Shown piece after piece: positions 1,363-60,863 of a stretch of DNA of 64,000 nucleotides. Under the pieces are notes generated by a model. That model was not told the DNA's origin, searched no databases, and worked only from the letters and a program-made list of their open reading frames with translations. This DNA comes from Dictyostelium discoideum (lineage: Eukaryota). The stretch is taken from NCBI GenBank assembly GCA_000004695.1, contig CM000151.3, positions 4,256,001 to 4,320,000 of the forward strand, in the 5' to 3' direction. Made by a program: the position numbers and the translations under genes. Numbering within the stretch: position 1 is the first letter of the stretch; every line of letters starts with the position of its first letter.

Positions 1363-1895
1363 TCAAGACATTGAATAATCAAAACTTTGACTTCTCATTT
1401 TATCATCTTTTTCATTATTTTTTATATTATTATTATTTGTAATAATACTATTTGGTGGTAAAGTGTTGGAACCAATTGAAGATTTTTGCATTGAAGGTGA
1501 ATGATGATAATAAACATTTGGTGATCCACTAATATTTACACTTGTAATATTATTTTTGGAAGATTTTAATTTACTTGATTGAACAGTTGGTGATTTAGAA
1601 TAAAAACCTAATTTTAAGCCATTATAAGCTGCGCTAACAATACTTGAATTCTTTCTCTTAAAATCTTGTTCAACTAAAAAAGTTGGACCAAATGATAATT
1701 GATTAATATTTGAGTATCCCATTAAACTAACAAAACAATCACGAATTGATTCTGAAATTTCTCTACCTAAATCTTTACCAAATTCAATTGATTCACCTTC
1801 TGGTATTGGTATTATATATTGATTAAATGTACAATCAGCAATTATACTATCATCAATTGTTGTAGAATTTGATGTTGTTGATGATGATGATGAAG

Positions 1896-1953
<58 letters not shown>

Positions 1954-3675
1954 AAAATTTGAATCATTTGGTGAAGTTGATAAATCTAAAGAATCACCTA
2001 ATGAACTATTTGAAGATGATGATGATTTAATTGGTCTTGAATTAATAGCACTACTATTTGATCTACTATTTGGACTTATACTACCACTACCACTATTACT
2101 GCTGCCACTACCACTACCACTACTACTACTACCACTTGATTTATGAAAAATTTTAATTGCATAAGAATTCATTTTCTTACCATTATTATCAATTACACCC
2201 ATTTGAATTCTTTTTATTGATGTAAGATTAAACTGTTTAAAATGAACGATTTTATTCTCATTAAAATTATATTTACATCTAACTAAATGAGAAGGTGTTA
2301 AGAGTAAGATACGTTCTTGTTCTTGATTACGTTTATTGATTGAAATAACGATCCAAGCATTAATGAAACCTTCACCAAGTGTTGATGACTCTTTTGAACG
2401 TAAGAAATGATCTACACAATTGTTTATGGCATCCATACGAGATTCACCCCAATCATATTCATTTTGAATGGAACGAAAGTTTTGAGCACTTTTATAGGTG
2501 TCAACAGTGGTCAAACCCAAGAAAAGGTCAATTGAAACTTGTCTAATTTTATCCAAGAAATTGTTGATGTAATAACGAGTCAACGAGTTTACACCATCTC
2601 GGAAAACACCTTTTGTATTTCTTTTACCAGTACGAGTGTAATCACCCTTCAAAGCTTGAGTACCAGCATATTGGAATGAAATTGCATCACCATTATTTGC
2701 CCATGCCAATTTAATCGATCGAGTTCCAGGCAATGATTGATCTTTAATTCTCCACTCGAAACCCAATCGTTTCAATTGTCTCTCCAATACTGATACACCA
2801 ATCATTGATTGTACCAAATTGGTACGATCTAAACAATCCAAACAATTGGTACGAGTTAAACCATGTTGATGTTGAGTGTAGCCTTGTTCTGAATTTCTCT
2901 CTGTATATCCAATATGTTGATGAATATTCTCCTCCAATTGATCGATCAAAATATCAACACGATCAAATCTATTACCTTGACAAAAATGGTGGAAATCGAA
3001 TGGAACGAAATCAATCTCTCGATAACCGCTTGTAACTGCCATCATTCTATACGCTTCACCCAATTCTGCTTCTGATCCTTTTTGATCTAATAATGTCACT
3101 AGCACTTGTGGTCCTGGTCCATACAATTTAATTTGTTCATCGAAATGAGCACGAAATGAATTTGAATTCAATTGATTATCTTGGGTAATCTTTATCTCTG
3201 GTTTAATCTTTCTACCAGTTTGTTCCCATATCAATGGTATACTACCTCTAGTTTGTACAAATGAAAATGTTGTCTTCTTTCCACTAGTTGGATCTTGATG
3301 TGATATAATTTGTTCTGTCTCTACATAATTTGCAACATTTCCATTATGATCTGATCCTCTTGTATTATATCTTGTACCCGCTCTAAATTTACTCCTTCTT
3401 GATATTAATAAAAATTCAATATCATTTCTTTCAATAAAAAAGTTTATAATTTCAACATCTTTTTAAAAAAATAATAATTAGTATTTACTATTAATCTATA
3501 ATAAATAAATTAATTCATAATAAAAATAATAATAATACATACAACCTCTAATCAATGGTAATACCCAATTATAAAAACCACCTTGAATTAAATTAGTTTG
3601 TAAATGTTTATTCCAATAAAATCTACTATTGAATACTTCAAAAAGATGATAAATTGTTTCTTGTGATTCTGTTAA

Positions 3676-5957: not shown

Positions 5958-6905
5958 CTTTTATTATAGTTTCTTGCTCTATAAATAGTGTTTAAATATT
6001 TTTATTTTTATTTTTTTTTTTTTTTTTTTCTATTTTTAAATTTTATATTTTTCCAAAGTACGTGTGAGTGTTTAAATTGATTGATTCAAAAATTGTGTAA
6101 CACCACTTTTTTTTTTTTTTTTTTATCGAGATTTATGCTTTATTATTACTATTATTTTTTTATTATTATTATTATAATTATTATAATTTTTTATATTGTT
6201 GTACGTAAACAAAAAAACAAAAAAAAAAAAAAAAAAAAAGACTTGTTTTTTTAGCTCATCCAAAAATAATATTGGGTCTTTTTAAAGAATCTAGTGTGCA
6301 ATAAACAAAAAAAACGTGCAAAAATTTTTTTATTTTGAATTTTCAACCATTTAAAAAAATATAAAAAAAAAATAAAAAATAAAAAAAAAAAATTCATATC
6401 CAGTGGTTTTCATTCTTCATAATTTAAAAAAAATCTTCTTTTTTGTCTTTTTTTTTTTTTTTTAGTAAAAGAAATAAAAATAATAAATATATAAAACTAA
6501 ACACATAAATAAAAAATAAATGTAAAAAATAATTATTAATAATGTATAAATAAGATTGGAAAAAATATAAATATATTTATATTTTTAACTTAAAACCTTC
6601 ATCAATATATTTTTCTCTCGAACTCGCTCTCTCACAAAAAGAAGATACATCTTAAATCTATTTTAATAAAAAGAAAAAAAAAAATTTAAACTTTTTTTAT
6701 TCCATTTTTTCAAGCCAAAAAAAAATAAAAAAAAATAAAAAAAAATAAAAAAAAAAACAAATTTAAAAAAAGATTTTTTAAAAACTAAAAATAGTTTATC
6801 TAATAGAAAAAAAAAAAAAAAAAAAAAAAACAGAATTAATGAATTACTTTTGTTAAGAAAAGTAAAGATAAAAAAATTTCCTTAATTAACATGTAATTTG
6901 TCTTC

Positions 6906-19807: not shown

Positions 19808-21314
19808 TTATTTTTTGAATTTACTACCATCAACCTTCATTTCAATTTCATCTTTATATTCTCCTTCTTCTTCTTCTTCTTCTAATTCTTCTTCTTCTAA
19901 TTCTTCATCTAATTGAATTGGATCAATCCAAGTTCTCCAAATATCTTTGCCTAATAGTAATTCAGCATCAGTTAATAGACAATTATTTAATTCAGATTCA
20001 ATTAATGATTGATTCATAGTATTACCACCAATGAAAACCAATTCTTGTCTTCTATCACCAAATGGTTCTGACCAATTCTTTTTGATTTCTTTTTGAAGAT
20101 CAAGGTTTGGATATTCATGTGGTTTTAAATCTGCTAACCAATAACCATAGTTTAAGATTGTCATTTGAACACCAGCTAAATTCCACATACCAATTAATTC
20201 AGGTGTTGATGCTATCCATGAGAAACCTTTTGAACGTAAAACACCGCCAAATACAGCCGACCCTTTTTCAATGACATTACTTAATCTTTCAGAATTGAAT
20301 GGTCTTCTTGCTTTGTAAATGAAACTTTTGATACCGTATTCAATGGTTTCAGGTACATGTGTACCTCTCAACTCTTTTAACCAACCTGGATGCTCTGATG
20401 CTTTCTTGAAGTCGAATAAACCCGTATTCAATATCTCCTTCAATGGCACCACGCTATTTGTAGATCTGAGTAGTCTGGCTTCTGGATTAATGTGTTTAAT
20501 CAGTCCTTCAATTGTTTTCACTCTCTCTTCTGATACTAAATCACATTTATTCAATAGAATCACATTTGAGAATTCAACTTGGTCTAATAATAAATCAACT
20601 AATGAACGTTCATCTTGATCAGTGGCTTGCATATCCTTGTCTTTTAAACTCTCACCAGATTGATATTGTTCTAACCATGTTGAACAGTCAACTACAGTCA
20701 CCATTGTATCCAATTTAGTATAATCTTTTAAATTCTCAATACTACCATCAATTTCAAATGTAAAAGTCTCTGCTATTGGTAACGGTTCTGAAATACCACT
20801 GGATTCAATAATTAAATAATCAAATCTTTTCTCTTTAGCTAATTTCGTCACTTCAACCAATAAATCCTCTCTCATTGTACAACAAATGCAACCATTTGAC
20901 ATTTCAACAACTGCTTCAACTTGTTTTTCCGTTGCTTTAGTTCTTGTAATTTTAAATTCATTTTCTAAAATTAATTTTGAATCAATATTAACTTTTTTTT
21001 TTAATAATAAATTAGTATTAAATTAGTATTAAAATTAAATTAAATTAAATAAATAAAAATTATAATTTACCTTCACTCATATCATTTACAATAACTGCAA
21101 TTTTTAAACCATGATTTGAATTTAAAATATAATTTAATAAAGTAGTTTTACCACTTCCTAAAAATCCACTAAGTACTGAAACTGGTAATTTCTCAAATCC
21201 TCTAACTTTAATTTTATGTAAAGTTTTTTTTAAATTTGAAGCATTTGATTTTAAATAATGTTTTTTCATTCTTCTTGGTTCTTTATTATTATTTGTTGAA
21301 GTTTTATTTACCAT
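19808..21314 (-). CDS. CobW/COG0523-family GTPase (CBWD/ZNG1-like metallochaperone). Exons 21314..21071, 20964..19808
   Basis: Exon 1 carries the P-loop [18 protein letters not shown]. Exon 2 carries the CobW signature MSNGCICCT and [20 protein letters not shown] donor and TTTTAG acceptor. Acidic C-terminal tail. Confidence 0.85.
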
Positions 21315-22391: not shown

Positions 22392-23653
22392 ATGCAATTC
22401 GTTGTGGCAAATAGACATATAAAGGTATATTTTTTTTCCCAAAATAAAAAATAAAATAAAAAAAATAAAAAAATAAAATAAAAAAAATAAAAAATAAAAA
22501 ATTTACTTATTCTTTTAAAAAAAAAAAATAAAAAAAAAAAAAATAAAAAAGCAATTTTCAAAAAGTTTGCAATGTATTTCAAGGATAGGTGATGATTTAT
22601 ATATTGAAGGTAGACAAGAATATATTAAATTTACAACAGTTAATAACTCGAAATCAGCATTTGTAGTATTTCAATTCTCAAACTCATTCTTTCATTCCTA
22701 TAGTTTAGAAGGAGATGAAGGTATACAGTATAAGGCAAAGTCTAAACTTTGTTTTCAAATGTTTCATTCATTAAGTAACATTGATAAATGTGCAATGAAA
22801 ATCGATTTAGAGGGAAAGATATCATTCTACCTTTTATGTAAAAATGGTATTCAAAAGACATACTCTATAAACTATGAATTATCACAATTACAAAGTGCTG
22901 TTTACAATAAGAATAGTCCTTATAAAATCTCTGTTAAACCAAAACAAATCTCTGACTGTTTAAATTATTTCGCTTCAAATACTGAAGAAATCTCAATTAA
23001 TCTTCAAAGAGATCGTTTATTAATTAAAAGTTCAACTGATGATAAAAGTAAGTTTTTATATTTTTTATATATATATTTATATATTTAATACTAACAGTTT
23101 TTTTTTTTTTTTTTTTTTTTAGGAGGATTAAAGAATTTATTCACAGAACTAGTATTAGATCGTAGTGATTTTGATGAATATGATTTTAATGGTGATGGAG
23201 AGGAGATTTCATTCAACTTTAAAGATTTAAAAACTATTATGGCATATGTTGATGTTATAAATAATCCTTGTACTTGGTTTATAGAAAGGGCTGGTTTACC
23301 ATTTCATATTAATTTAAAATATAGTTCAACTTATGAAGTTGATTTTGTATTAGCTACATTACAAGATAGTTCACAACCAAATGATGATCGTCAACAATAT
23401 CAACAACAATATCAACAACAATATCAACAGCAGCAACAACAACAACAATACCAACAACAGCAACAGCAACAACAATATCAACAACAGCAGCAACAACAAC
23501 AACAACAATATAGAAATAGTAATACAGTAGGATCATCCCCATTATCAATGAATACAAGAAATACACCACAACAATATAGAAATAGTAATACGGTGGGATC
23601 ACCAAGTGTAGGACAATCAAATCAACAATATCAACAACAACAGCAACAATATC

Positions 23654-23686
<33 letters not shown>

Positions 23687-24036
23687 ACTCACCAAACCAA
23701 AACAACATGTATGATGATGATGATGGAATGGATATGGGACCAATTGATCATGATTTAAGTCCTGCTATTAACTATGGTGATTCAAGAACTTCTCAACAAC
23801 CACAACAAATACAACAACAACAACAACAACAAATGCAACCACATTACAATAATCAATCAATGCCACCATCATCATTAGGTTCAACTTCAAGTTATTTAAC
23901 AACAAATAGTAAAAAACCTGTTATCAGTTATCGTGGTATAAACTTGGAGGCTGATGACGATGATGATGATGAAGAAAATGGTTTTAATCAAAATGAAAAT
24001 GAAGAACAAAATATTCAAAATAGTCAAAATCAATAA
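22392..24036 (+). CDS. rad9: Rad9 checkpoint clamp (9-1-1 complex) subunit. Exons 22392..22424, 22552..23047, 23123..24036
   Basis: N-terminus MQFVVANRHIK|QFSKSLQCISRIGDDLYIE parallels human RAD9A [36 protein letters not shown] and GTAAGT donors with AG acceptors, phase consistent. C-terminal half is poly-Gln/Asn-rich with an acidic tail. Confidence 0.8.
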
Positions 24037-24120
24037 ACATGTATAATAATAATAATAATAAAATTATTTTAAAATTAATTAAATAAAATTTTTTATTTTT
24101 CCATATTATTTGTATTACTT

Positions 24121-27100
24121 TTAAGTTGTTTTAAAAAAATAAGAACTTCTGTATTGAGAGTTATAATCTTGATTTTGGATTGTTAAACCAACTGCAACCA
24201 TTAAAAAGAATAAGATAACTAAAATTATTAAAAAGAATAAAATATTCTATAATTTTTAAAAAAAAAATAAAATAAAAAAATAATGGGATTAGTATAACAT
24301 TTTTTTTTTTTTTTTTTTTTTAATTTAAAAATTAATTTACTTACTATACAAATACTACTTCCTATATTACTACTACTACTACTACTACTACCAACTTTCT
24401 TTGATTTTAATTTATTATTATTATTATTATTTTTAATATTATTATTATTATTAATATTATTTTTATTTTTTAATTGAGTTTCAATAAATTGTTTAATTTC
24501 TTCTTGTTGTTTTAAAAAGTTTGACTGAGCATCTTCTAAAGTATTTTTAAGATTTTCAGCTCTTTCTCTTTCTCTATCTTTTTCTTTTCTTATAAATTCT
24601 TCATTTTCATCGATTTCAACCAATTTACCCATGATTGATTCAACATTTGTACTAATGATTGTATTGGTTTGTTCTTGATTTTTACAGATTTTTTCGAATA
24701 AAACTTCAATTGTATTCATTGATATAATTAAATTACTTTCAATTGAAGATGATGATGATGATTGTGTTGATTGTTGTTGTTGTTGATTATTATTTACAAT
24801 TGTTGGGAATTGAATTTCCAATTTATTTGTTAGTGTATCTATTTGAGTTTTTAAATTTTTTAAAATTAAAGTTTGTTCAGTATGTTTTGATCTCGCTAAA
24901 TCAATTTCTTTTTGAAGGGATTTCTCACGTTCTATATGTTGATTTGTAAGTGATGAAATATTTAATTTTAATTTTTTAATCTCTTCTAATGATTCATTAT
25001 TATTATTATTTAATGATGAATTTGATAAAGAATCAACTGAATTTGAATAAGTACTTTGTAAAATATTTAAACGATCTTGTAATTCTTTTGATTGACGTAC
25101 GACCTCATTACATTTTGATTTCCATTTTTGTTTATTTGATTCTAATGTATTTATTCTTTGATCTTTATCAGTTGATTCTTCTAAAGCTTTTGTTAATTTT
25201 AAACGAATTTCATCAGATTCTGATTTTGAATTCAATAAAGCATCTTTTAATTTTAATTCCAATTGTTTGGATTTTTCATTTGAATCATGAAGATCATTTA
25301 CTAATTGTTGACGATGATTAAATGATTTTTGAATTTCTTCATTTGTTGCTTGATATTTTTGAGAGTATTGTTCAATCTTTAAGAGTTGCTCTTGATTTAT
25401 TTGTTTTGAAAGCTCCAATTCTTGTGTTAGGATTTCAATTTGTGATACATTATTTTTATTTAAAACATTAAATTTTTTTGGTAGATCTGAATTCTCTTCC
25501 TCTAAATTAATGATATCCTCTTGAAGACGGTCATTCTTTTTTTTTAATTCTTCACAGGCATTTTGTAGTTGTGTAATGTAGGTTGCAACCGATGATGGTG
25601 GTATTACACCACTATTAATTGAAATTTTCTCTATGAATTTCTTGTAGGTTTCAATATCTTTATTTAGTTCACGTAATTTTGCTTTCAATTCTGAATGAGA
25701 TTCTTCAACGTTTTGTAATGGTTTATTCTTAACAGATTGAGCACGTTGACCGAAATTTAAAGATTGAATGGTTTCTCTTATGACTGATTCATGATTTGAA
25801 CTTGAACAATTTACAATTAAACATGTCTTTGAATTACCACCAAAACATTGTTGTAGTAATTGAGTTAGCTTACTATCTCTATATCTAACATGTTTGGAAT
25901 TCTTTGACATATCTTCAATCACACCACCCAAGGCATACAATGATTTATTGATTGATTTTGTCTCTTCAATCTTTGATGTTGTGCCATCGATTTTTGATGC
26001 ACTTTCAGAGCCTGCCAAATCTACTAAATACAACAATGATGTAACGGTCATTTTATTCTCTAAATCTTCCTTTAACAATGATACTATGAATATTGCATGA
26101 CTTCTACTACTTGCCATATTCTTTTTGGTTTCTGCTATCTTTCTATTCTTTTCAATATGTTGTAAATGTGTTAGAAAATCTGTAAATGTTTGAATTGATG
26201 ATTGAACTGCATCTGGTACTATAAATCCACCATCTGCCATTCTAATCTCAATATCATTCACTCCACCCTCTGATAGCAAATCATAAACTTTCTCTTTGTA
26301 AACCTCTAAATATGATATTTTAGTTGTAAATTTAATACGTTGTGGTGTATTCATTGATTGTTGTTCATCTTGTTTAATAAATAAATCTTTAATAATTCTT
26401 GGCATAATACCCCATGATGATGGTAATAGTTGTTGTTGTTGTTGTTGCTGTTGGCTTCCATATAAATAATGACTATTATTATAAAATTCAGATCTATTAC
26501 AATATGAATTATAAGAATCATTACCCTCACCACCAGAGAAACCTAATGAAAATGTTTTACCTGCACCAGTTTGACCATAGGCTATAATACCAACATTATA
26601 ACCATTAACAATATTATCAATCAATGGTTTACCAACTTCATTATAAAATGATTCTTGAGTAGTATTTGGTTGATAAACTTTTGAGAATCTAAATGCTTGT
26701 GCCATTGAACTTGATGATGATGATGTTGGTGTAATATGAATAGTTGTTTGATCAGTTCCAATTGTTAATTGTTTCTCTGATGGTCCTAATGTTTGTTCAG
26801 CTGCTGTCTCTGGTCTAAATCTACATACTGCTTGAATACTTTCTTCTCTATCACTAAATAATGGTTGAGTTTTTGATGTAATATTAACACCACCAACTGA
26901 ATTAAAATTTTGAATTGGTGTTCTTCTACCACTAATTGATGATGATGATGGTGTTGGTGATGGTGATGATGATCTATTATTTAAATTTAAATGATTATTA
27001 TTATTATTATTATTACTACCATTGTTTAAATGTGAACTTGGTGATAAACTATTACTATTAATACCATTACTTGTATTTAAAGTATTATTAGTTGTAGTCG

Positions 27101-27887
27101 TAGTTGTTGTAGTTGTAGTTGTGAGATTATGTTGATTAAATCCTTCCATTAATGATAATTCTGGTGGTGGTGAAGTTGTAGAAATAAACATTGTTGGTGA
27201 AGGTGTAGATGTTGATGAATTTGAATTTACTAAATGATGATTACCATTTCCACCACCACTATTACTAAGTGGATTATTGCCATTATTTGTCGATGAAGGT
27301 AAACTACTAAATGCTGTATTGCTTGATGTTGAAAGTGTAACTTTTTGATTTTGACTTAAAATTTCAGAATTATTACTCTCTAACATTGATGAAATATTTG
27401 TTGATGTTACATTATTACCATTACTACCATTATTATTATTATTATTATTATTAGTGGTATGATTTGGTTGAGGTGTTGATGGTCTTGAACCTAGTGATGT
27501 AGTTGTAGTTGTTGATATGAATGATGAATGACGTTTTGAAGGATCTTTTTTTGCACTTAATTGTTGTGATGGAGGTAGGGGAATTGATGATGGCGGTAGT
27601 AGTGATGAATTCATCGATAGCCTTTTCTTTGAAGATTGTGACATTGGTGTCGATAATGAATCCATATTTAAGGTTTTCTTTGCATTCTCCATCGTTGAGA
27701 ATACCAATGATCCTTTACCAATACTATTAGTTATCGATGATGTAGTAGCAGTGGTACTACCATTTCTTGGTGTTGATATTGATGATGTTGATGGTGATGA
27801 ATTTGATCTTGACCTTAATTGACCGCCAGTAGTTGAATTTATCGTTGGTTGTTTAGGTGTTGAAAAATTATTATTATTATTATCCAT
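24121..27887 (-). CDS. kif9: Kinesin with central motor domain, long coiled-coil and a C-terminal transmembrane anchor encoded by a short 3' exon (Kif9-like). Exons 27887..24345, 24246..24121
   Basis: Motor motifs GIIAYGQTGAGKTFSL, SSRSHAIF, LVDLAGSE. The N-terminus is Ser/Thr-rich for about 350 aa and the C-terminal region is heptad-rich. After a GTAAGT donor and TTATAG acceptor the last exon encodes NILFFLIILVILFFLMVAVGLTIQNQ...*, a hydrophobic TM tail. The true start is the ATG giving MDNNNNNFSTPK; the ORF track's MRIVNM begins at GTG. Confidence 0.8.
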
Positions 27888-30344: not shown

Positions 30345-32952
<2,608 letters not shown>

Positions 32953-37443: not shown

Positions 37444-40245
37444 TATCTAATAATTTAATTTTTTTTTTTTTTTATTTTTTTTTTATTTTTTTTTTTACAG
37501 TCAATTTCAATTCATAATGAATTTAATACATTATTTAAAAATTATAAGAGTAAAACTATAAATTTACAAAAACAAAAAAAGATTATTAAAGATGCAGCAC
37601 AAGCATCAACTCAAGAAGCACCACGTAAACATGCAGAGAGAAGAGTTTATATTAGACAAGAATTGGAAGCAATGTGGAATTTGTTTAGAGATAAACCATG
37701 TTTATTGGCACCAAAGATTAATGTACTTTTAGCTGCTCTCTCCATGGCAAAGGAAGAGATTTTCTGGTATTTCCGTCATACTGATGTTATTCCACCAGAA
37801 AAAGTAAAGAAATTCTATAACAAACAAAATGAAGTTAGAGAAAAAAGAATTTCTTCTTTACTTTCATTAGTTGATCATTTAGTTCAATTAGTTCATACTC
37901 ATAAAAAAAGTAAGTTTTTTTTAAAAAAAAAAAAAAAAAAAAAATAGATAATATTATATTAAAAAAAAAAAAAAAAAAAAATTACTAATTTTTAAATTTT
38001 TTTTTTTAATTTTTTTTTTTTTTTTTAATTTTAATTTTAAAAAGTGATTCAAAATTATTATTTAGAATATATTTCAGGTGCAGATATTTTAGGTTTACAA
38101 AAAGTAATTACACCACAATTATTACAAAATGCAGGATCAATTGTTACACAAGCAGTTAATACAATTGTTAACGAATTGAAATCATTGAATGCCAATGGAC
38201 AAGATTATAGTTTTGAAGGATTTAGAGCAAATTGGATGAGATTAGGTTATTTATTACAATCAAATTCATGTCCATTGAAAGAGAGTGAATCAAAACAAAT
38301 CACCAGTCGTTTGAATTTAATTTATACACATAGTAAGAATGTTGATTGTTTGGATCAATTATTGGATGAATATGGCAATATGACTCAGTTGTGGTCATAC
38401 AAAGAACCATTGTTCCATTCATTCGATGCTGCCATTGTTGATATGACATGTGACCAACCATCACATTCAATGATCTATTTGAAATTGTTATCGCAATTCC
38501 CTAATCACGTCGCCAATCAATTCTATCCTGAAGAGAAGGAACTCATCGGTAAGGAGTGTGTAGAGTTGGCAAATAGTTGTCTCACCAAGATCACCAATCG
38601 TATCGTATCGATCATGGCAAACACTATCGCCTCTACTTTCCTCTCTGATGAGCAACAATTGGCCGATGTCAATGCAGCTTTCCCATTGTTGCAAAAGAAG
38701 AAGGATTGGAAACCACCAAAGGATTTCGTACCACCAATCGAACCTGCTAGTGAGTCACAATTTAGAAATAGAGCTAATCTCGAGCAACTTCGTTCCGAAG
38801 AGAAGAATGCATTCCAACTTTGCACTGCCTTGAATGAATTCTTGGACATTACAATCTATGATCACATTTTCGTACCAAGGGAATTCCTTCGTGAGAAATT
38901 GGGTTCTGCACTCAAGCAATATATGCGTCAATCAATTCAACCACCCGCTCCAACCTCTTCCTCCTCCCAAATCGATATCAATATCACTCGTCTCTCAACT
39001 TATGAATCTCAATTACGTGTTTTCATTGGTGTGTTGATTTTGGTAGAGAATCATGTTGACATTGATATCGGTGATCTCATTCGTGAGACTATCCTCACCG
39101 AATTTTACGCCAAGGCTTTGGGTAAGAGTGGTCGTGTCGATTGGTTCCCAGAGGGTGAAATTGAAATGAATGAATTAACGCTCCACTCCATCACAAGCTA
39201 CTATGTCGATTTGGTCTCTAAAAAACTCAATACTCCTGGTGTGGTTTTCTCTCCAGTTAAATTGGGTTTCATCTCAAAGGCTGGTACACCATTCCGTGCC
39301 GAGGAACATGCTGACCTCACTGAAATGAGAGCACTTTGTGATTTGGTTGGTCCATATGGTATCAAGGTCATCGAGAGGGAAATCCTTCGTTTCATTCTTA
39401 CCACTACCACCTCAATGAAAGAGATCCTCTCACTCAATGCTGCAAATCTTGAAGAGTTTGCATCAAATTATTACAAACCAAAAGCAATGGAACTTTTAAA
39501 GAAATTCAAAACTACAGATTTAGATCTCATTGTAACCAAATCCATCGCCATTGGTAATGCCCTTCATTTGAGATCAATGATTAGAGAATCCATGAAAGAC
39601 GTTATCACTGATAACTTCCCATATATTAATAATGCCGTTGCCAATGCTTTCGATCAATATAATCGTAACACATTTATGTTTCCAGACTTTTTAGGTGTTG
39701 ATACTTTGGCTTTGGATTCGGGTTTGAACGTTGGTATTGCCGATCAATACCTTAAAGTTATCCTTAGAAAGGTCTCCTCAGAGGCTGATAAAAGAATTTG
39801 GGAGTTATTACCTGTGATGTTCTCTCTCACATTCTATGGTAACATTTGGAAGGAAACTCAATACAAAGCTACCATCGACGCTCATTCAAATAATGTACAT
39901 GTATTATCAAAAACTATCATCGATTTACTCATAGCATTTGGTGCCATCAATTCAACCACTGGTAATGAGGCAGAGTTATTCCAATCATTTAAACGTTTCC
40001 TCGAAATTTCCTCTGTCAATATCTTACGTATGTTTAAGGGTAAACAAGGTGAAAAATTCGTTCCAAATGAAATTCAATCAGTTATCATCTTTTTAGATAA
40101 ATTCACTCAACAATGTCCATTATTATCAAAAGATTCACTCGAACAATACATTCCTTATTCACTCATCAGAAATATGTATAAAGATTTATATGAACATAAA
40201 AATCTTCAAAAACAACAATCTGAAACTTCTGAACAAAATTTCTAA
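36502..40245 (+). CDS. napA: Nck-associated protein 1 / Hem-2 / Nap1 subunit of the SCAR/WAVE complex. Exons 36502..37374, 37501..37909, 38045..40245
   Basis: Collinear similarity to NCKAP1 over the full length (e.g. RIQQWILFGYLFAPGTL vs WIIFGFILCHGIL). GTAAGT donors at 37375 and 37910 with TTTTACAG and AAAAG acceptors. About 1160 aa, matching the family size. Confidence 0.9.
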
Positions 40246-55742: not shown

Positions 55743-55747
<5 letters not shown>

Positions 55748-58700
55748 TTAAATCAGTTTGACAAAGTGGACAATTACTTTTATGACTAGTTTGGAACCAT
55801 TTATAAATACAACCAGCATGAAATTTATTCTTACAAGTTTTACATTGGAATTTTGGAATTGTACCATTGTGAAACATTGAATAACAGATTGGACAAACTT
55901 CAACACCTTGGAAATGTTTATCTAAAGAATTTTTCCAAAGTAAACAAGCATCTAAAACAGTACCATCTTGAGTTAGCAATAAAGATGTCATTGATAATAA
56001 CCATTGTCTCCATTGTGATTCTGAAACACCAACTCTCTTTGAAAATTCTACAGTTAACACACGCAATGGATAATTATCAGAGATGAAGAGTACTAATGAA
56101 ATGGTCATTTCATCTTTTTCATAAGAGGCAGTAACCTCTTTACTTGAGGTTGAACCTTTAATTTGGAATTTAGCATCACTACTATCGCTATCAGTACAAC
56201 GATAAGAATTTACTCTTTGAATTTCATTTTGAATGATAATTGGACTAATGAAACGAGTGATATAACTTTGAATTTGTTGATTCATTTTAGAATTGGTTGA
56301 ATTATCATCAGCCCATCTACGTACCATACTTGGTAAATAATTAACCAATGAATAAAAACAATTTGAACATAATTTTTGAATCATTCTATAAGTAATTAAT
56401 TGATCATTATCAATAATTGAAAATGGAAATTCAATTGAATAATTATTACCATTATTATCGGTTGTTGTTGTTGTTGTTGTTAATGGTGATTCATCTTTAT
56501 TAATAAATGGGAATATTTGATTTAAGAACAATGTAACTTTTTGAATATTATTATCATTTAACCAACCATTTAAAATTGAACGTCTATTTAAATCAATCTT
56601 TGAATAATTTAATAATAATAAATTCCAACACATTAATTGACCCATTGAAATACTATTAATTAATTGATTATCTTTTGATTTCTTCATTGGTTTAAATGTT
56701 GAATCGAAATCTAATAAAATCTTTTCAAATATATTACTAAATAAAATAAAACTAACTTTTTCTTCACCATCATCGTTGTTGTTGTTGTTGTTGTTGTTTT
56801 CATTTTCTAATAAGAATGATTTCACTAATTGAGTATTTTCATTACCAAAATAAGATTCCAATAAATTGTAAGAAGTTTTCTTTATACCTTTATTATTATA
56901 AATACTTGTACTATAATTAAATGTTGATAATAATTCAATTAAATTATCTAATTTAGTTAATGATATCTTATATTTTATATCATTCGACATTTTCATAAAT
57001 GTATTTGAATATAATTCTAAAATATAACTTGAATCACTTGTATTACCATTATTATTATTACTTCTACTATTACTAACTCTATTTAACCAATTATTTAAAA
57101 TTAAAATTGAATGATCAATTTGAAATTGATCACCAATACCTGGTATTATAAATTTAATATTATCATTTGAAATTATAATATTATAAATTTTCAATGATTG
57201 ATATTCAATTAAATTACGATATTGTTGATAATAATAATTTGATTTAAATTTATTGAATGATAGTAATGTGAAATTATTTGATAACCAAATTGATAAAAAT
57301 GATTGAACAAATTGTGATTGGTTATTTGATAAATAAATTGGTTGTTTTGATTTATTCGAATTTATATTGGAAATGTATTGAATAACAATTAAAATGAAAT
57401 TCAAACAAGAGAGTTCAACCTCTTTCATAAATAAAAATTCAAGTTCAGGTTCTTGTTGTTTAATAATTGCACTTTTAATCTTTGAATTCCATTGTTGAAT
57501 AGTTTGAATTAAATTTAATAATGTTAACCATTCTTTTTCCTTTAATATTTCATTATCATCTTGTGTAATTTGTTGTTGTTCTTTTTGTGATTGTTGATGT
57601 TGTTGCTGTTGTCTTTGAATAACTATTGATGATAAAATTGATAATTGAATTGAAATGGATTTAAAATTTGTTGGAATTGAACTTGATAATTGACTTAATT
57701 GATTAATTGACCATTGTTTATAAGATTCAATTGATTCTTTTTGTAAAATTGGTAATAAAATTTGAACTAAATTCAATTGTCTAATTGAATCAATTGAATT
57801 ACCATTATCATCATTATCAATCTTTATTGAATTTAATAATGCTGATTTCAATTTCATTGATGATGTTGGTAAACAAGCATCACTTGTAATATAATCAATG
57901 AATAATGCCAATAGAACGGAATAAATACCACCATTATTACCATCACCACCAACATTTGATACTAAACAATTGAACCAATTACAATTGAAAATTTCGTCAC
58001 CATAAAATTTAAACAATGATTCAATAAATTGATTTAATAAATTTGTTGAATTATTTTCAATAAATTCTAAAATTTGTTCATTTGTTGACACTACTACTGC
58101 TGTTGTTATTGTAGTGGTGGTGGTGGTGGTTGTGGTTGGAGTTGGTGGTAATTGATTATCTCCATTAACGAATAATAAATTTAATAATAATAATTCAATG
58201 CTGTTATTATTTTCTTTATTAGAATATTTAATGAATTTTTCTAAACCAAACGATTCAATAACTTTAAAGTTAAAAATTAAAACCTTTAATAATTTATCAG
58301 TTGAGAAAGTGGTGCTATCGTTATTGTCTTTGTTGGAACCATAATTATCTAATAAATAAAATGGTGTAATTCTATTGTATCTAAACCAAGATATTTTAAT
58401 TTGATCTTTTGAATTGATTACTAATTGATTTGAAGTAAACTCTTTTATGAAATAAGAATACAATTGATCGTCGTCATCATCATCATCACCATTTTCATCA
58501 TGACGGTAGCTACCACTTTTAATTAATTTAATAGCACAATTTGATAAAAAATTTAAATTTAAATTATCATTTGTAATGATAGTACTACTATTTCTATCAA
58601 TGGATTCAATTAATAATGATAAAATGAATTTATCATTTTCAATGTTTGAAGTTGTTGAGAATAGATATTCATCAATTGAATTACATTTTGATTTAAAACC

Positions 58701-60863
58701 AGATAAACTTGGACGATTATTAATTTCAATATTAAATTTACACCATTCAATTAATAATGATTCTAATGATTTTGATTTAAATCTTGATGAAAATAATAAT
58801 TTTGATAATTCAACTAAATAATCAATTGAAACATCATTATCATCACTATCATCATCATTATTATTATCGCCGCCTTTATCATTATCATTAAATACTAAAT
58901 TTAATTGTACCATTGTATTTATAATATCAACCAATTTATTATAAACCCATTTAATTAATAATTCAACTGATTCATTTGGAATTATTGGTGAGAATTCATT
59001 ATTATTATTATTATTATTATTAAATAAAATTGATTTAATTAATTGTAATTGTTTTTTATCTTGAATTTTAATTGATTTAAATAATGTAGTTGATAATAAT
59101 AAATTTCTATTGATTTTATTACTTGCACTATTAATTAAATGAACTAAACTATTTGTTGTATTTGTAATTAAATTTGATCTATTATTTTTCTTTTTACTAT
59201 TATTATTATTATTATTAATTGAATCTAAAAATATTTGTAAAATTTGAGACCAAATTAATTTGATTTCATCTTCATCAGGAACTAAAGCTAACAATCCAAC
59301 TATAACTGAAACTAAATCTCCACCAACTCCTAAATTTAAACCACCTGTTGATAAAAGTGATTCATTTAATGCCAAAGCTAATTGAGTTATTATTTTTTTA
59401 ATATCATCTAAACCATTTGAAATGATTTGATCAATTTTATAATTTCCTAAAATAAAATCTAAAATTTTAATTGATAACTCTTGATTACTATTTAAATTAT
59501 CACATGCTAAATTAAATAGTCTTTTTATAATTACTTGAATAACATTATTATTATTACTATTATTACTATTGTTATTATTTGAACAAACAATTATAAATGT
59601 ATTTAATCTTGAAATTAAAGTTTCTTTTGAAATTGGTTGAATTATTTTCTCTTGTTTTTTAATTATTGGACTACTGTTATTATTATTATTATTATTATTA
59701 TCAGTAGTGATTGGTTCATTATTATTTAAAAGATTTTCTTTATTATTAAAATTTATAAAACTATTTGAATTAAATAAATTTTGAATTTTTAAAAGATTTG
59801 AATTTGATAAATTTGCAAGTTTAATTGTAGATTCTAATAATTTTTCAATGAATAATTTTTCAGAGAAACAAGAATGTTCCAAATTGAAATGATTATTATA
59901 AAAGTTAAATAATAATGTATCGATTAAGTAATCATTGATTTGTTGATATTGTTGACCCCATTTCTTACTCGAATAAATTAAACATTCCAAATAACATGAT
60001 AATAATAAATTGGAAGGTCTATCAACACTATTAGGATTACCATATTGTCTTGGATTATCAACAACTTCTAAACCCTTTTCTAAATTTGTGAATAACTCTT
60101 TAAAGAAACCGATATCAATATTTGTATTTGGTGATGGTGATGGTGATGGTGATGGCGATCCAATTACAATTGAATTTGGAATAAAAGTTAATAATGGCAA
60201 AATTGAAGGATAGGATAATTCAAAAGAACCATAACAACCAGATCTGAGGAATGCCCATAATCTTGGTAATACATGTTTACGAACATCAACATTACTCCAT
60301 GCTTTGTCACCATATTGCTGTAAGAATGATATTATGGCATCCCACATATAAAGATGAGTTGATGAATCTTTCTCTGAAAATAATCCTAAAACTTTACTAC
60401 TAAAATCTTTGAAATTCTTTTCGACATATCCTGCTAACTTTTTAATAACAGTTGTCAATACTCTATATGCTGTCTTTCTAATATTTGAACTCTTTGATTG
60501 AAAAAATGAAAAAAATTGTGATTCAAATATTTTTTCATAAATTTCTGTATTACCTGTATTATTTGTAGTTGTCGTTGTTGTAGTTGTTGATGATGATGAT
60601 GATGAATCAGTTGCTGTTGCTGTTGTATTATTAATTAAATACTCAATTGCTAATAATGAGTTTGAAATACATCTTTCATATCTCTCTTGTAAGATTTCTT
60701 GGCTAATTGATTTACTATCACCAATAGTTTGTGGTGTCTCTTGTAAATTCTCACATAAATAAGTTAATGCTTCATCATGTCCAAATTTAAAAACATCTTT
60801 TCTTTTCTTTTCTGGGAATATATTCTATATATATAAATATTAAAAATAAGTATGTATACAATA

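Follow-up and report, generated by a model that had tools for sequence, protein, structure and literature searches.

A separate terminal exon for the tail anchor of the nuclear-envelope kinesin Kif9 in Dictyostelium discoideum and its relatives

The kinesin Kif9 of Dictyostelium discoideum has been described as a protein of the nuclear envelope that couples the centrosome to the nucleus. Two reviews from the Gräf laboratory (PMC11816917 (2025) and PMC8534566 (2021)), summarising Tikhonenko et al. 2009/2013, report a C-terminal transmembrane segment of about 23 residues and localisation of green fluorescent protein (GFP)-Kif9, as well as of GFP fused to the transmembrane segment, at the nuclear envelope. 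The same reviews assign Kif9 to the outer nuclear membrane, concentrated beside the centrosome, and describe a kif9 knockout in which centrosomes are detached from the nucleus, Sun1 is dispersed, and centromere clustering is disturbed. The knockout was also used for the study of centrosome-nucleus engagement by Leo et al. 2012 (PMC3507195). Existing kinesin families accommodate 12 of the 13 Dictyostelium kinesins (Nag et al.); Kif9 would be the exception, as a table in the Koonce 2020 review (PMC7140473) labels its family "Novel Kin-I" and gives its activity as "MT depolymerize" (MT, microtubule). Both Gräf reviews group it with kinesin-13, and another review lists it among the KASH proteins (PMC4284225). 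Here we analyzed 64,000 nucleotides (nt) of D. discoideum chromosome 2 (assembly GCA_000004695.1, contig CM000151.3, positions 4,256,001 to 4,320,000; hereafter the window), in which a kinesin gene ending in a separately encoded membrane helix had been predicted.

With a probability of about 93%, we read this gene as D. discoideum kif9, lying on the minus strand of the window and consisting of two exons, the second of which encodes the C-terminal tail anchor only. Its elements are as follows.

24345..27887, minus strand: kif9 exon 1, a 3543-nt open frame ending in phase 0, with the ATG at 27887; codons 1-1181
24247..24344, minus strand: terminal intron, 98 nt, GTAAGT...TTATAG, phase 0, 8% GC
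24121..24246, minus strand: terminal exon 2, 41 codons (24246..24124) and TAA at 24123..24121
24092..24097, minus strand: AATAAA, a candidate polyadenylation signal 24 nt past the stop codon, from reading of the sequence only

Exon 1 ends in ...AGT ATT TGT ATA at 24345 (...S-S-I-C-I), and within the intron there is a branch-like TACTAAT. Exon 2 translates as NILFFLIILVILFFLMVAVGLTIQNQDYNSQYRSSYFFKTT followed by the stop codon, giving an apolar core of 20 residues and then a tail of another 20. Left unspliced, the frame runs through 38 further unrelated codons to the stop TAA at 24230..24228. The original prediction had placed a GTAAGT intron at 24344..24247 ahead of a 41-codon exon, and every coordinate proved correct to the base. 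By exact-sequence look-up, the spliced product of 1222 amino acids is identical to Kif9 of D. discoideum AX4 (XP_644079.1/EAL70194.1/UniProt Q555I8 KIF9_DICDI). An independent deposit, BAC56911.1 ("kinesin-related protein DdKin2"), agrees at 1221 of 1222 residues, the sole difference being E935V, and has the same junction and the same tail. The likeness to a Kif9-type nuclear-envelope kinesin that had been proposed is thus one of identity: the window gene and Dictyostelium Kif9/DdKin2 are the same gene, with 100% protein identity over 1222 residues and the same internal motor, C-terminal transmembrane segment, and gene structure. The proposed role as the centrosome-nucleus linker motor is likewise that published for Kif9, whose knockout detaches centrosomes according to the reviews. 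The gene had been offered as a discovery, yet kif9, its transmembrane tail, and its coupling role are known, having been published and annotated since 2009/2013.

At 14-37% GC per 2-kb bin, the window is very rich in AT, and T-rich codons (Phe, Ile, Leu) are frequent at this composition. When all six frames of the window were surveyed, 72 of the 492 stop-free stretches with 41 or more codons (15%) matched exon 2 in 19-residue-window hydrophobicity. GTAAGT was not enriched in the window, with 18 occurrences observed and 18.8 expected from shuffles, and AATAAA is common by chance at such composition and carries little weight. Hydrophobicity, splice hexamer, and open frame are each alone at chance level here, so that an anchor inferred from sequence alone is fragile and needs independent support; hydrophobicity as sufficient evidence for the anchor exon was rejected on the same count of equal stretches. 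That exon 2 is real follows from the identity of its product to the database protein, from the conservation of exon and intron position across Dictyostelia, and from the published experiments, with conservation carrying the weight of the claim. Exon 2 has a GC content of 20%, which is 2.5 times that of the intron (8%); the downstream spacer has 7%.

A word-indexed homologue search returned orthologues only from the D. discoideum complex (94% and 90% identity) and D. purpureum (45%), all of which end in the same kind of tail as Kif9. An exhaustive HMMER search added Cavenderia fasciculata, two paralogues of Acytostelium subglobosum, Tieghemostelium lacteum, and Heterostelium album. The genomic loci of the orthologues were retrieved, and the proteins were mapped onto them for intron positions. 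In D. discoideum, the anchor exon begins with an Asn codon directly preceded by a phase-0 intron, and of seven other dictyostelid genes examined, six have an intron of the same phase at that codon boundary. The lengths of the terminal kif9 intron are as follows.

D. discoideum (window): 98 nt
D. cf. discoideum: 78 nt
D. purpureum: 62 nt
C. fasciculata: 66 nt
A. subglobosum paralogue 1: 78 nt
A. subglobosum paralogue 2: 79 nt
H. album, unannotated: 81 nt

These lengths differ by numbers that are not multiples of 3, the intron sequences have diverged with insertions and deletions, and the peptides that would result from read-through are unrelated between species (38, 16, and 11 residues). In its DNA, the anchor exon of D. 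cf. discoideum matches that of the window at 100% identity, and protein identity to D. purpureum is 63% in the transmembrane segment, 60% in the motor, and 44% in the stalk. The orthologue of T. lacteum (L005 3001..6198) is intronless and encodes its anchor contiguously, which indicates loss of the terminal intron in that lineage, the only loss among the dictyostelid genes examined. At the H. album locus (L003 6103..6291; GL290984.1, kif9 gene nt 3103..3291), ...LLFCK is followed by GTAAGT...TAATAG (81 nt) and then by NFIILLFVMLLVFILMVCVGKTLEHKDRYKYTFRS and a stop codon (6184..6291), evidently the anchor exon. The public model of this gene, EFA85536.1, has a different end without a transmembrane tail; the annotation probably misses the anchor exon through choice of the wrong 3' splice site.

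Conservation extends to the last residues of the protein. The extreme C-termini of the orthologues read FFKTT, FYKAT, FRIS, FRS, LRS, and YRSS, with one A. subglobosum paralogue (NSLS) deviating, and the pattern [FYL][KR], 0-1 residues, [ST]-COOH is found in six of seven orthologue tails, that of D. discoideum included. This conserved end may be a SUN-facing motif.

Two further observations concern gene copies. The A. subglobosum paralogues (L006 and L007) encode proteins of 862 and 907 amino acids; both have the terminal intron and the anchor exon, and the anchor of the 907-residue protein is the more divergent. D. purpureum has a second, short Kif9-like protein (P0130, DICPUDRAFT_83617, 416 amino acids), whose best stretch is 57% identical and whose neck reads SVKNKPQVNVELSNHQLKQYIQGLK, as in Kif9; either partial duplication or a fragment left by assembly or annotation may account for it.

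The encoded protein is divided as follows.

26823..27887, minus strand: N-terminal low-complexity extension, residues 1-355, 54% Ser+Asn+Thr, without a Pfam domain
27579..27590, minus strand: SxIP motif SSIP, residues 100-103, a candidate EB1/microtubule-tip-binding site from a motif scan
25731..26822, minus strand: kinesin motor domain, residues 356-719, Pfam PF00225, E = 7e-84, full profile 1-327
24468..25730, minus strand: neck-linker-like VKNKPLQN and coiled-coil stalk, residues 720-1140, from alignment to the kinesin-1 neck linker and neck and a weak match to the Pfam coiled-coil family APG6_N
24345..24467, minus strand: Asn/Ser-rich linker, residues 1141-1181, with the basic patch KLKSKK directly before the anchor
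24184..24243, minus strand: transmembrane core ILFFLIILVILFFLMVAVGL, residues 1183-1202, the protein's longest apolar run and hydropathy maximum
24124..24183, minus strand: post-membrane tail TIQNQDYNSQYRSSYFFKTT, residues 1203-1222, from the sequence only

The motor retains the canonical motifs of the kinesin superfamily, with the P-loop GQTGAGKT, switch I SSRSH, and switch II DLAGSE. As predicted, it occupies an internal position (Pfam match at residues 356-719), which it owes to the low-complexity extension of 355 residues. SxIP-type motifs are also N-terminal in the orthologues of D. purpureum, C. fasciculata, A. subglobosum (P0124), and H. album, and the N-terminal SxIP of Kif9 is cited in PMC11816917. 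The strongest Kyte-Doolittle window of 19 residues in the whole protein (3.37) falls within exon 2, where the motif F.LMV.VG..IQ of the transmembrane core is conserved among the Kif9 orthologues. The reading of this segment as a tail anchor was borne out: the only hydrophobic segment of the 1222-residue protein lies about 20 residues from the C-terminus, and the polar N-terminus has none. The anchor is composed of a basic cytosolic flank, a membrane helix of about 20-23 residues, and a tail of about 20 residues. The positive charges of KLKSKK would be on the cytosolic side of the membrane segment, and the C-terminal tail is presumably in the perinuclear lumen, a topology that we infer. By analogy with other tail-anchored proteins, membrane insertion would be post-translational, since the only hydrophobic segment of Kif9 leaves the ribosome last.

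Comparison of the motor with solved structures, in which the best 60 chains were considered, gave kinesin-1 chains as the nearest relatives, the first being 1goj (E = 1.4e-58). The 60 chains comprised kinesin-1, -2, -4, -5, -7, -10, -12, and -14, with no kinesin-13 among them, and no KIF2/MCAK-named protein was present among the 120 database matches listed. Kinesin-13 motors carry class motifs known from MCAK structures, namely a KVD finger (loop 2) and a KEC motif (loop 8). A motif scan of the D. discoideum and D. purpureum Kif9 proteins found neither. What Kif9 has in common with kinesin-13/Kin-I motors (MCAK/KIF2C and Dictyostelium Kif6) is an internal motor and a reported depolymerising activity; it differs in that its internal position comes from a low-complexity extension and in the absence of the class motifs. 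The sequence does not support the kinesin-13 label, and because the hallmarks of that class are missing, the depolymerase claim rests on a reported assay rather than on family membership. The kinesin-1 heavy chains (KIF5, Neurospora Nkin) provide the best motor match, and their neck linker and the start of their neck coiled coil align with those of Kif9. Kif9 differs from them in its N-terminal extension, in long insertions within the motor (such as a Gln-rich loop after the P-loop), and in having a membrane anchor where kinesin-1 has a cargo- and light-chain-binding tail.

Animal KIF9/kinesin-9 shares only its name with the Dictyostelium protein. Dictyostelium has no flagella, and the number in a Dictyostelium Kif name is a gene serial number. 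No KIF9-named chain or protein occurred among the best 60 solved chains or the 120 database matches listed. PMC2806587 describes kinesin-9 members as confined to flagellated species. In a table in PMC8534566, human "Kif9" stands as the counterpart to the Dictyostelium protein; as kinesin-9 is a flagellar family, this pairing looks like a coincidence of names and not orthology.

When the 98-nt intron is spliced out, the anchor is joined in frame to a cytosolic part of 1181 residues, made up of the disordered SxIP-bearing N-terminus, the internal kinesin motor, and the coiled-coil stalk. According to the reviews, the anchor places Kif9 in the nuclear envelope next to the centrosome. There, as the reviews hypothesise, the anchored motor would grip centrosomal microtubules and depolymerise them, so pulling the centrosome onto the nucleus, and Kif9 could form the cytoplasmic half of a LINC (linker of nucleoskeleton and cytoskeleton)-like bridge with Sun1.

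Several points weigh against this account. The T. lacteum gene encodes its anchor without an intron, meaning that function does not as such require the anchor to be encoded separately. The 24345/24246 junction rests on comparative evidence and database entries. What is said here on Kif9 function is taken from reviews, and in these the evidence for a connection to Sun1 is indirect, namely the dispersal of Sun1 in the knockout (PMC11816917, PMC8534566). The lack of kinesin-13 motifs, together with a neck linker like that of kinesin-1, fits poorly with a dedicated depolymerase. No match to Pfam KASH was obtained with the D. discoideum or D. purpureum tail at E <= 10, a scan of both tails yielding only sub-threshold compositional matches (Orf78, CD52, SNARE and others), and the PPPx C-terminus is absent from both proteins, which end in FFKTT and FYKAT, respectively.

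KASH-domain membership of Kif9 was rejected on the missing Pfam match and PPPx end. The resemblance to KASH proteins (nesprins, UNC-83, ZYG-12, Klarsicht, Kms1/2) is instead one of arrangement, comprising a tail anchor in the outer nuclear membrane that is followed by a short peptide in the lumen, a link from the nucleus to microtubules or the centrosome, and a distribution of Kif9 that is interdependent with Sun1. The lumenal tail of KASH proteins has about 30 residues, compared to about 20 in Kif9, and the motor that they recruit is part of the same polypeptide in Kif9.

An alternative to the depolymerising mechanism comes from the ATPase motifs of the orthologues. In an alignment (A1) of seven Kif9 orthologues (D. 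discoideum, D. purpureum, T. lacteum, H. album, two of A. subglobosum, and C. fasciculata), the proteins of D. discoideum and D. purpureum were the only ones with GQTxxGK[ST], SSRSH, and DLAGSE all in canonical form. The five others, which lie outside group 4, are non-canonical at all three.

T. lacteum Kif9: P-loop GQALSGKT, switch I NSRRH, switch II DLASSE
H. album Kif9: P-loop GASGSGKS, switch I RSKGH, switch II DLSGSE
A. subglobosum P0125: P-loop GPHWSGKT, switch I DTKGH, switch II DLSGSE
A. subglobosum P0124: P-loop GCTGTGKT, switch I ESRGH, switch II DLSGSE
C. fasciculata Kif9: P-loop GMPQSGKT, switch I QRSGN, switch II DLGASE

All three canonical motifs are present in 230 of the 259 other kinesins retrieved. 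Across the seven orthologues, hardly any variation is seen in the microtubule-binding region (KSINKSLYALGGVIED...HVRYRDSKLTQLLQ...GGNSKT), and the Walker A core GxxxxGK[ST] is kept by all of them. This pattern suggests that, in most of the Kif9 family, microtubule binding and anchoring are strongly constrained and ATP turnover is under relaxed constraint, although it is not directly applicable to the Kif9 of the window, where the motifs are canonical. Kif9 might then be mainly a microtubule tether or clamp, or an ordinary stepping motor, and not a depolymerase of the kinesin-13 type, with the anchor and the microtubule face doing the work and ATP turnover secondary. The kinesin-1 affinity of the motor, the absence of KVD and KEC, the kinesin-1-like neck linker VKNKPLQN that follows the motor, and the non-canonical motifs of five orthologues in which HVRYRDSKLTQLLQ...GGNSKT is invariant or nearly so all speak for this alternative. 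It has to be set against the intact catalytic motifs of the D. discoideum and D. purpureum proteins, the microtubule depolymerisation given as a measured activity of Kif9 in PMC7140473, and the Walker A core, through which nucleotide binding may persist in all orthologues; on balance we regard it as unlikely for Kif9. Somewhat less doubtful, but still tentative, is a reading at the level of the family, in which the core of Kif9 would be the anchor, the ancient intron, the lumenal end, and the microtubule-binding face, and the protein would be fundamentally a nuclear-envelope-microtubule tether, a KASH-like linker in one polypeptide. D. discoideum would then be a catalytically intact exception, or the ATPase would be dispensable for centrosome attachment.

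It was also considered that a substantial share of transcripts might retain the intron and yield a soluble Kif9 without an anchor, making the separate exon a switch between anchored and free forms. That six of seven other dictyostelid genes examined have kept the intron position agrees with this, and there is a precedent in the centrosomal splice variant of Caenorhabditis elegans ZYG-12 that lacks the KASH domain (PMC4284225). Such a regulated isoform is nonetheless highly improbable, because T. lacteum has its anchor contiguous without the intron and the read-through tails, of 38, 16, and 11 codons, are not conserved; in addition, both database proteins are the spliced form, and the reviews PMC11816917 and PMC8534566 mention no isoform. 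Finally, the idea that the hydrophobic 41-codon frame is a T-rich non-coding by-product joined on by a gene predictor, with the true protein end elsewhere, draws on the equal hydrophobicity of 15% of comparable stretches and the chance frequency of GTAAGT, but is effectively refuted by conservation of exon and intron position where the flanking low-complexity sequence has diverged, by the 2.5-fold GC contrast, and by the reported localisation of GFP on the transmembrane segment alone at the nuclear envelope (PMC11816917).

Downstream of kif9 and convergent to it is a Rad9 checkpoint-clamp gene, whose stop codon is 84 nt from that of kif9, so that the 3' untranslated regions of the two genes must be very short or overlapping. 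A convergent Rad9 neighbour is also found downstream of kif9 in D. purpureum. The five further genes of the window recognised by Pfam are ordinary in appearance, and a tRNA scan of the window found no tRNA genes.

22567..24036, plus strand: Rad9 checkpoint-clamp gene, first exon Pfam Rad9 at 2.7e-58, Gln-rich C-terminal part
38044..40245, plus strand: Nck-associated protein 1 (SCAR/WAVE complex subunit), Pfam
55743..60458, minus strand: listerin-type RING E3 ligase, Pfam
1363..3234, minus strand: Sac-domain inositol phosphatase, Pfam
19808..20902, minus strand: CobW-family GTPase, Pfam
30345..32324, minus strand: RNA recognition motif (RRM) protein, Pfam

For the window itself nothing changes, as the kif9 reading is correct and not new. 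For the family, the anchor exon and the intron preceding it date to the common ancestor of Dictyostelia, and the degenerate ATPase motifs outside group 4 offer a direct way to test depolymerase pulling versus anchored microtubule binding.

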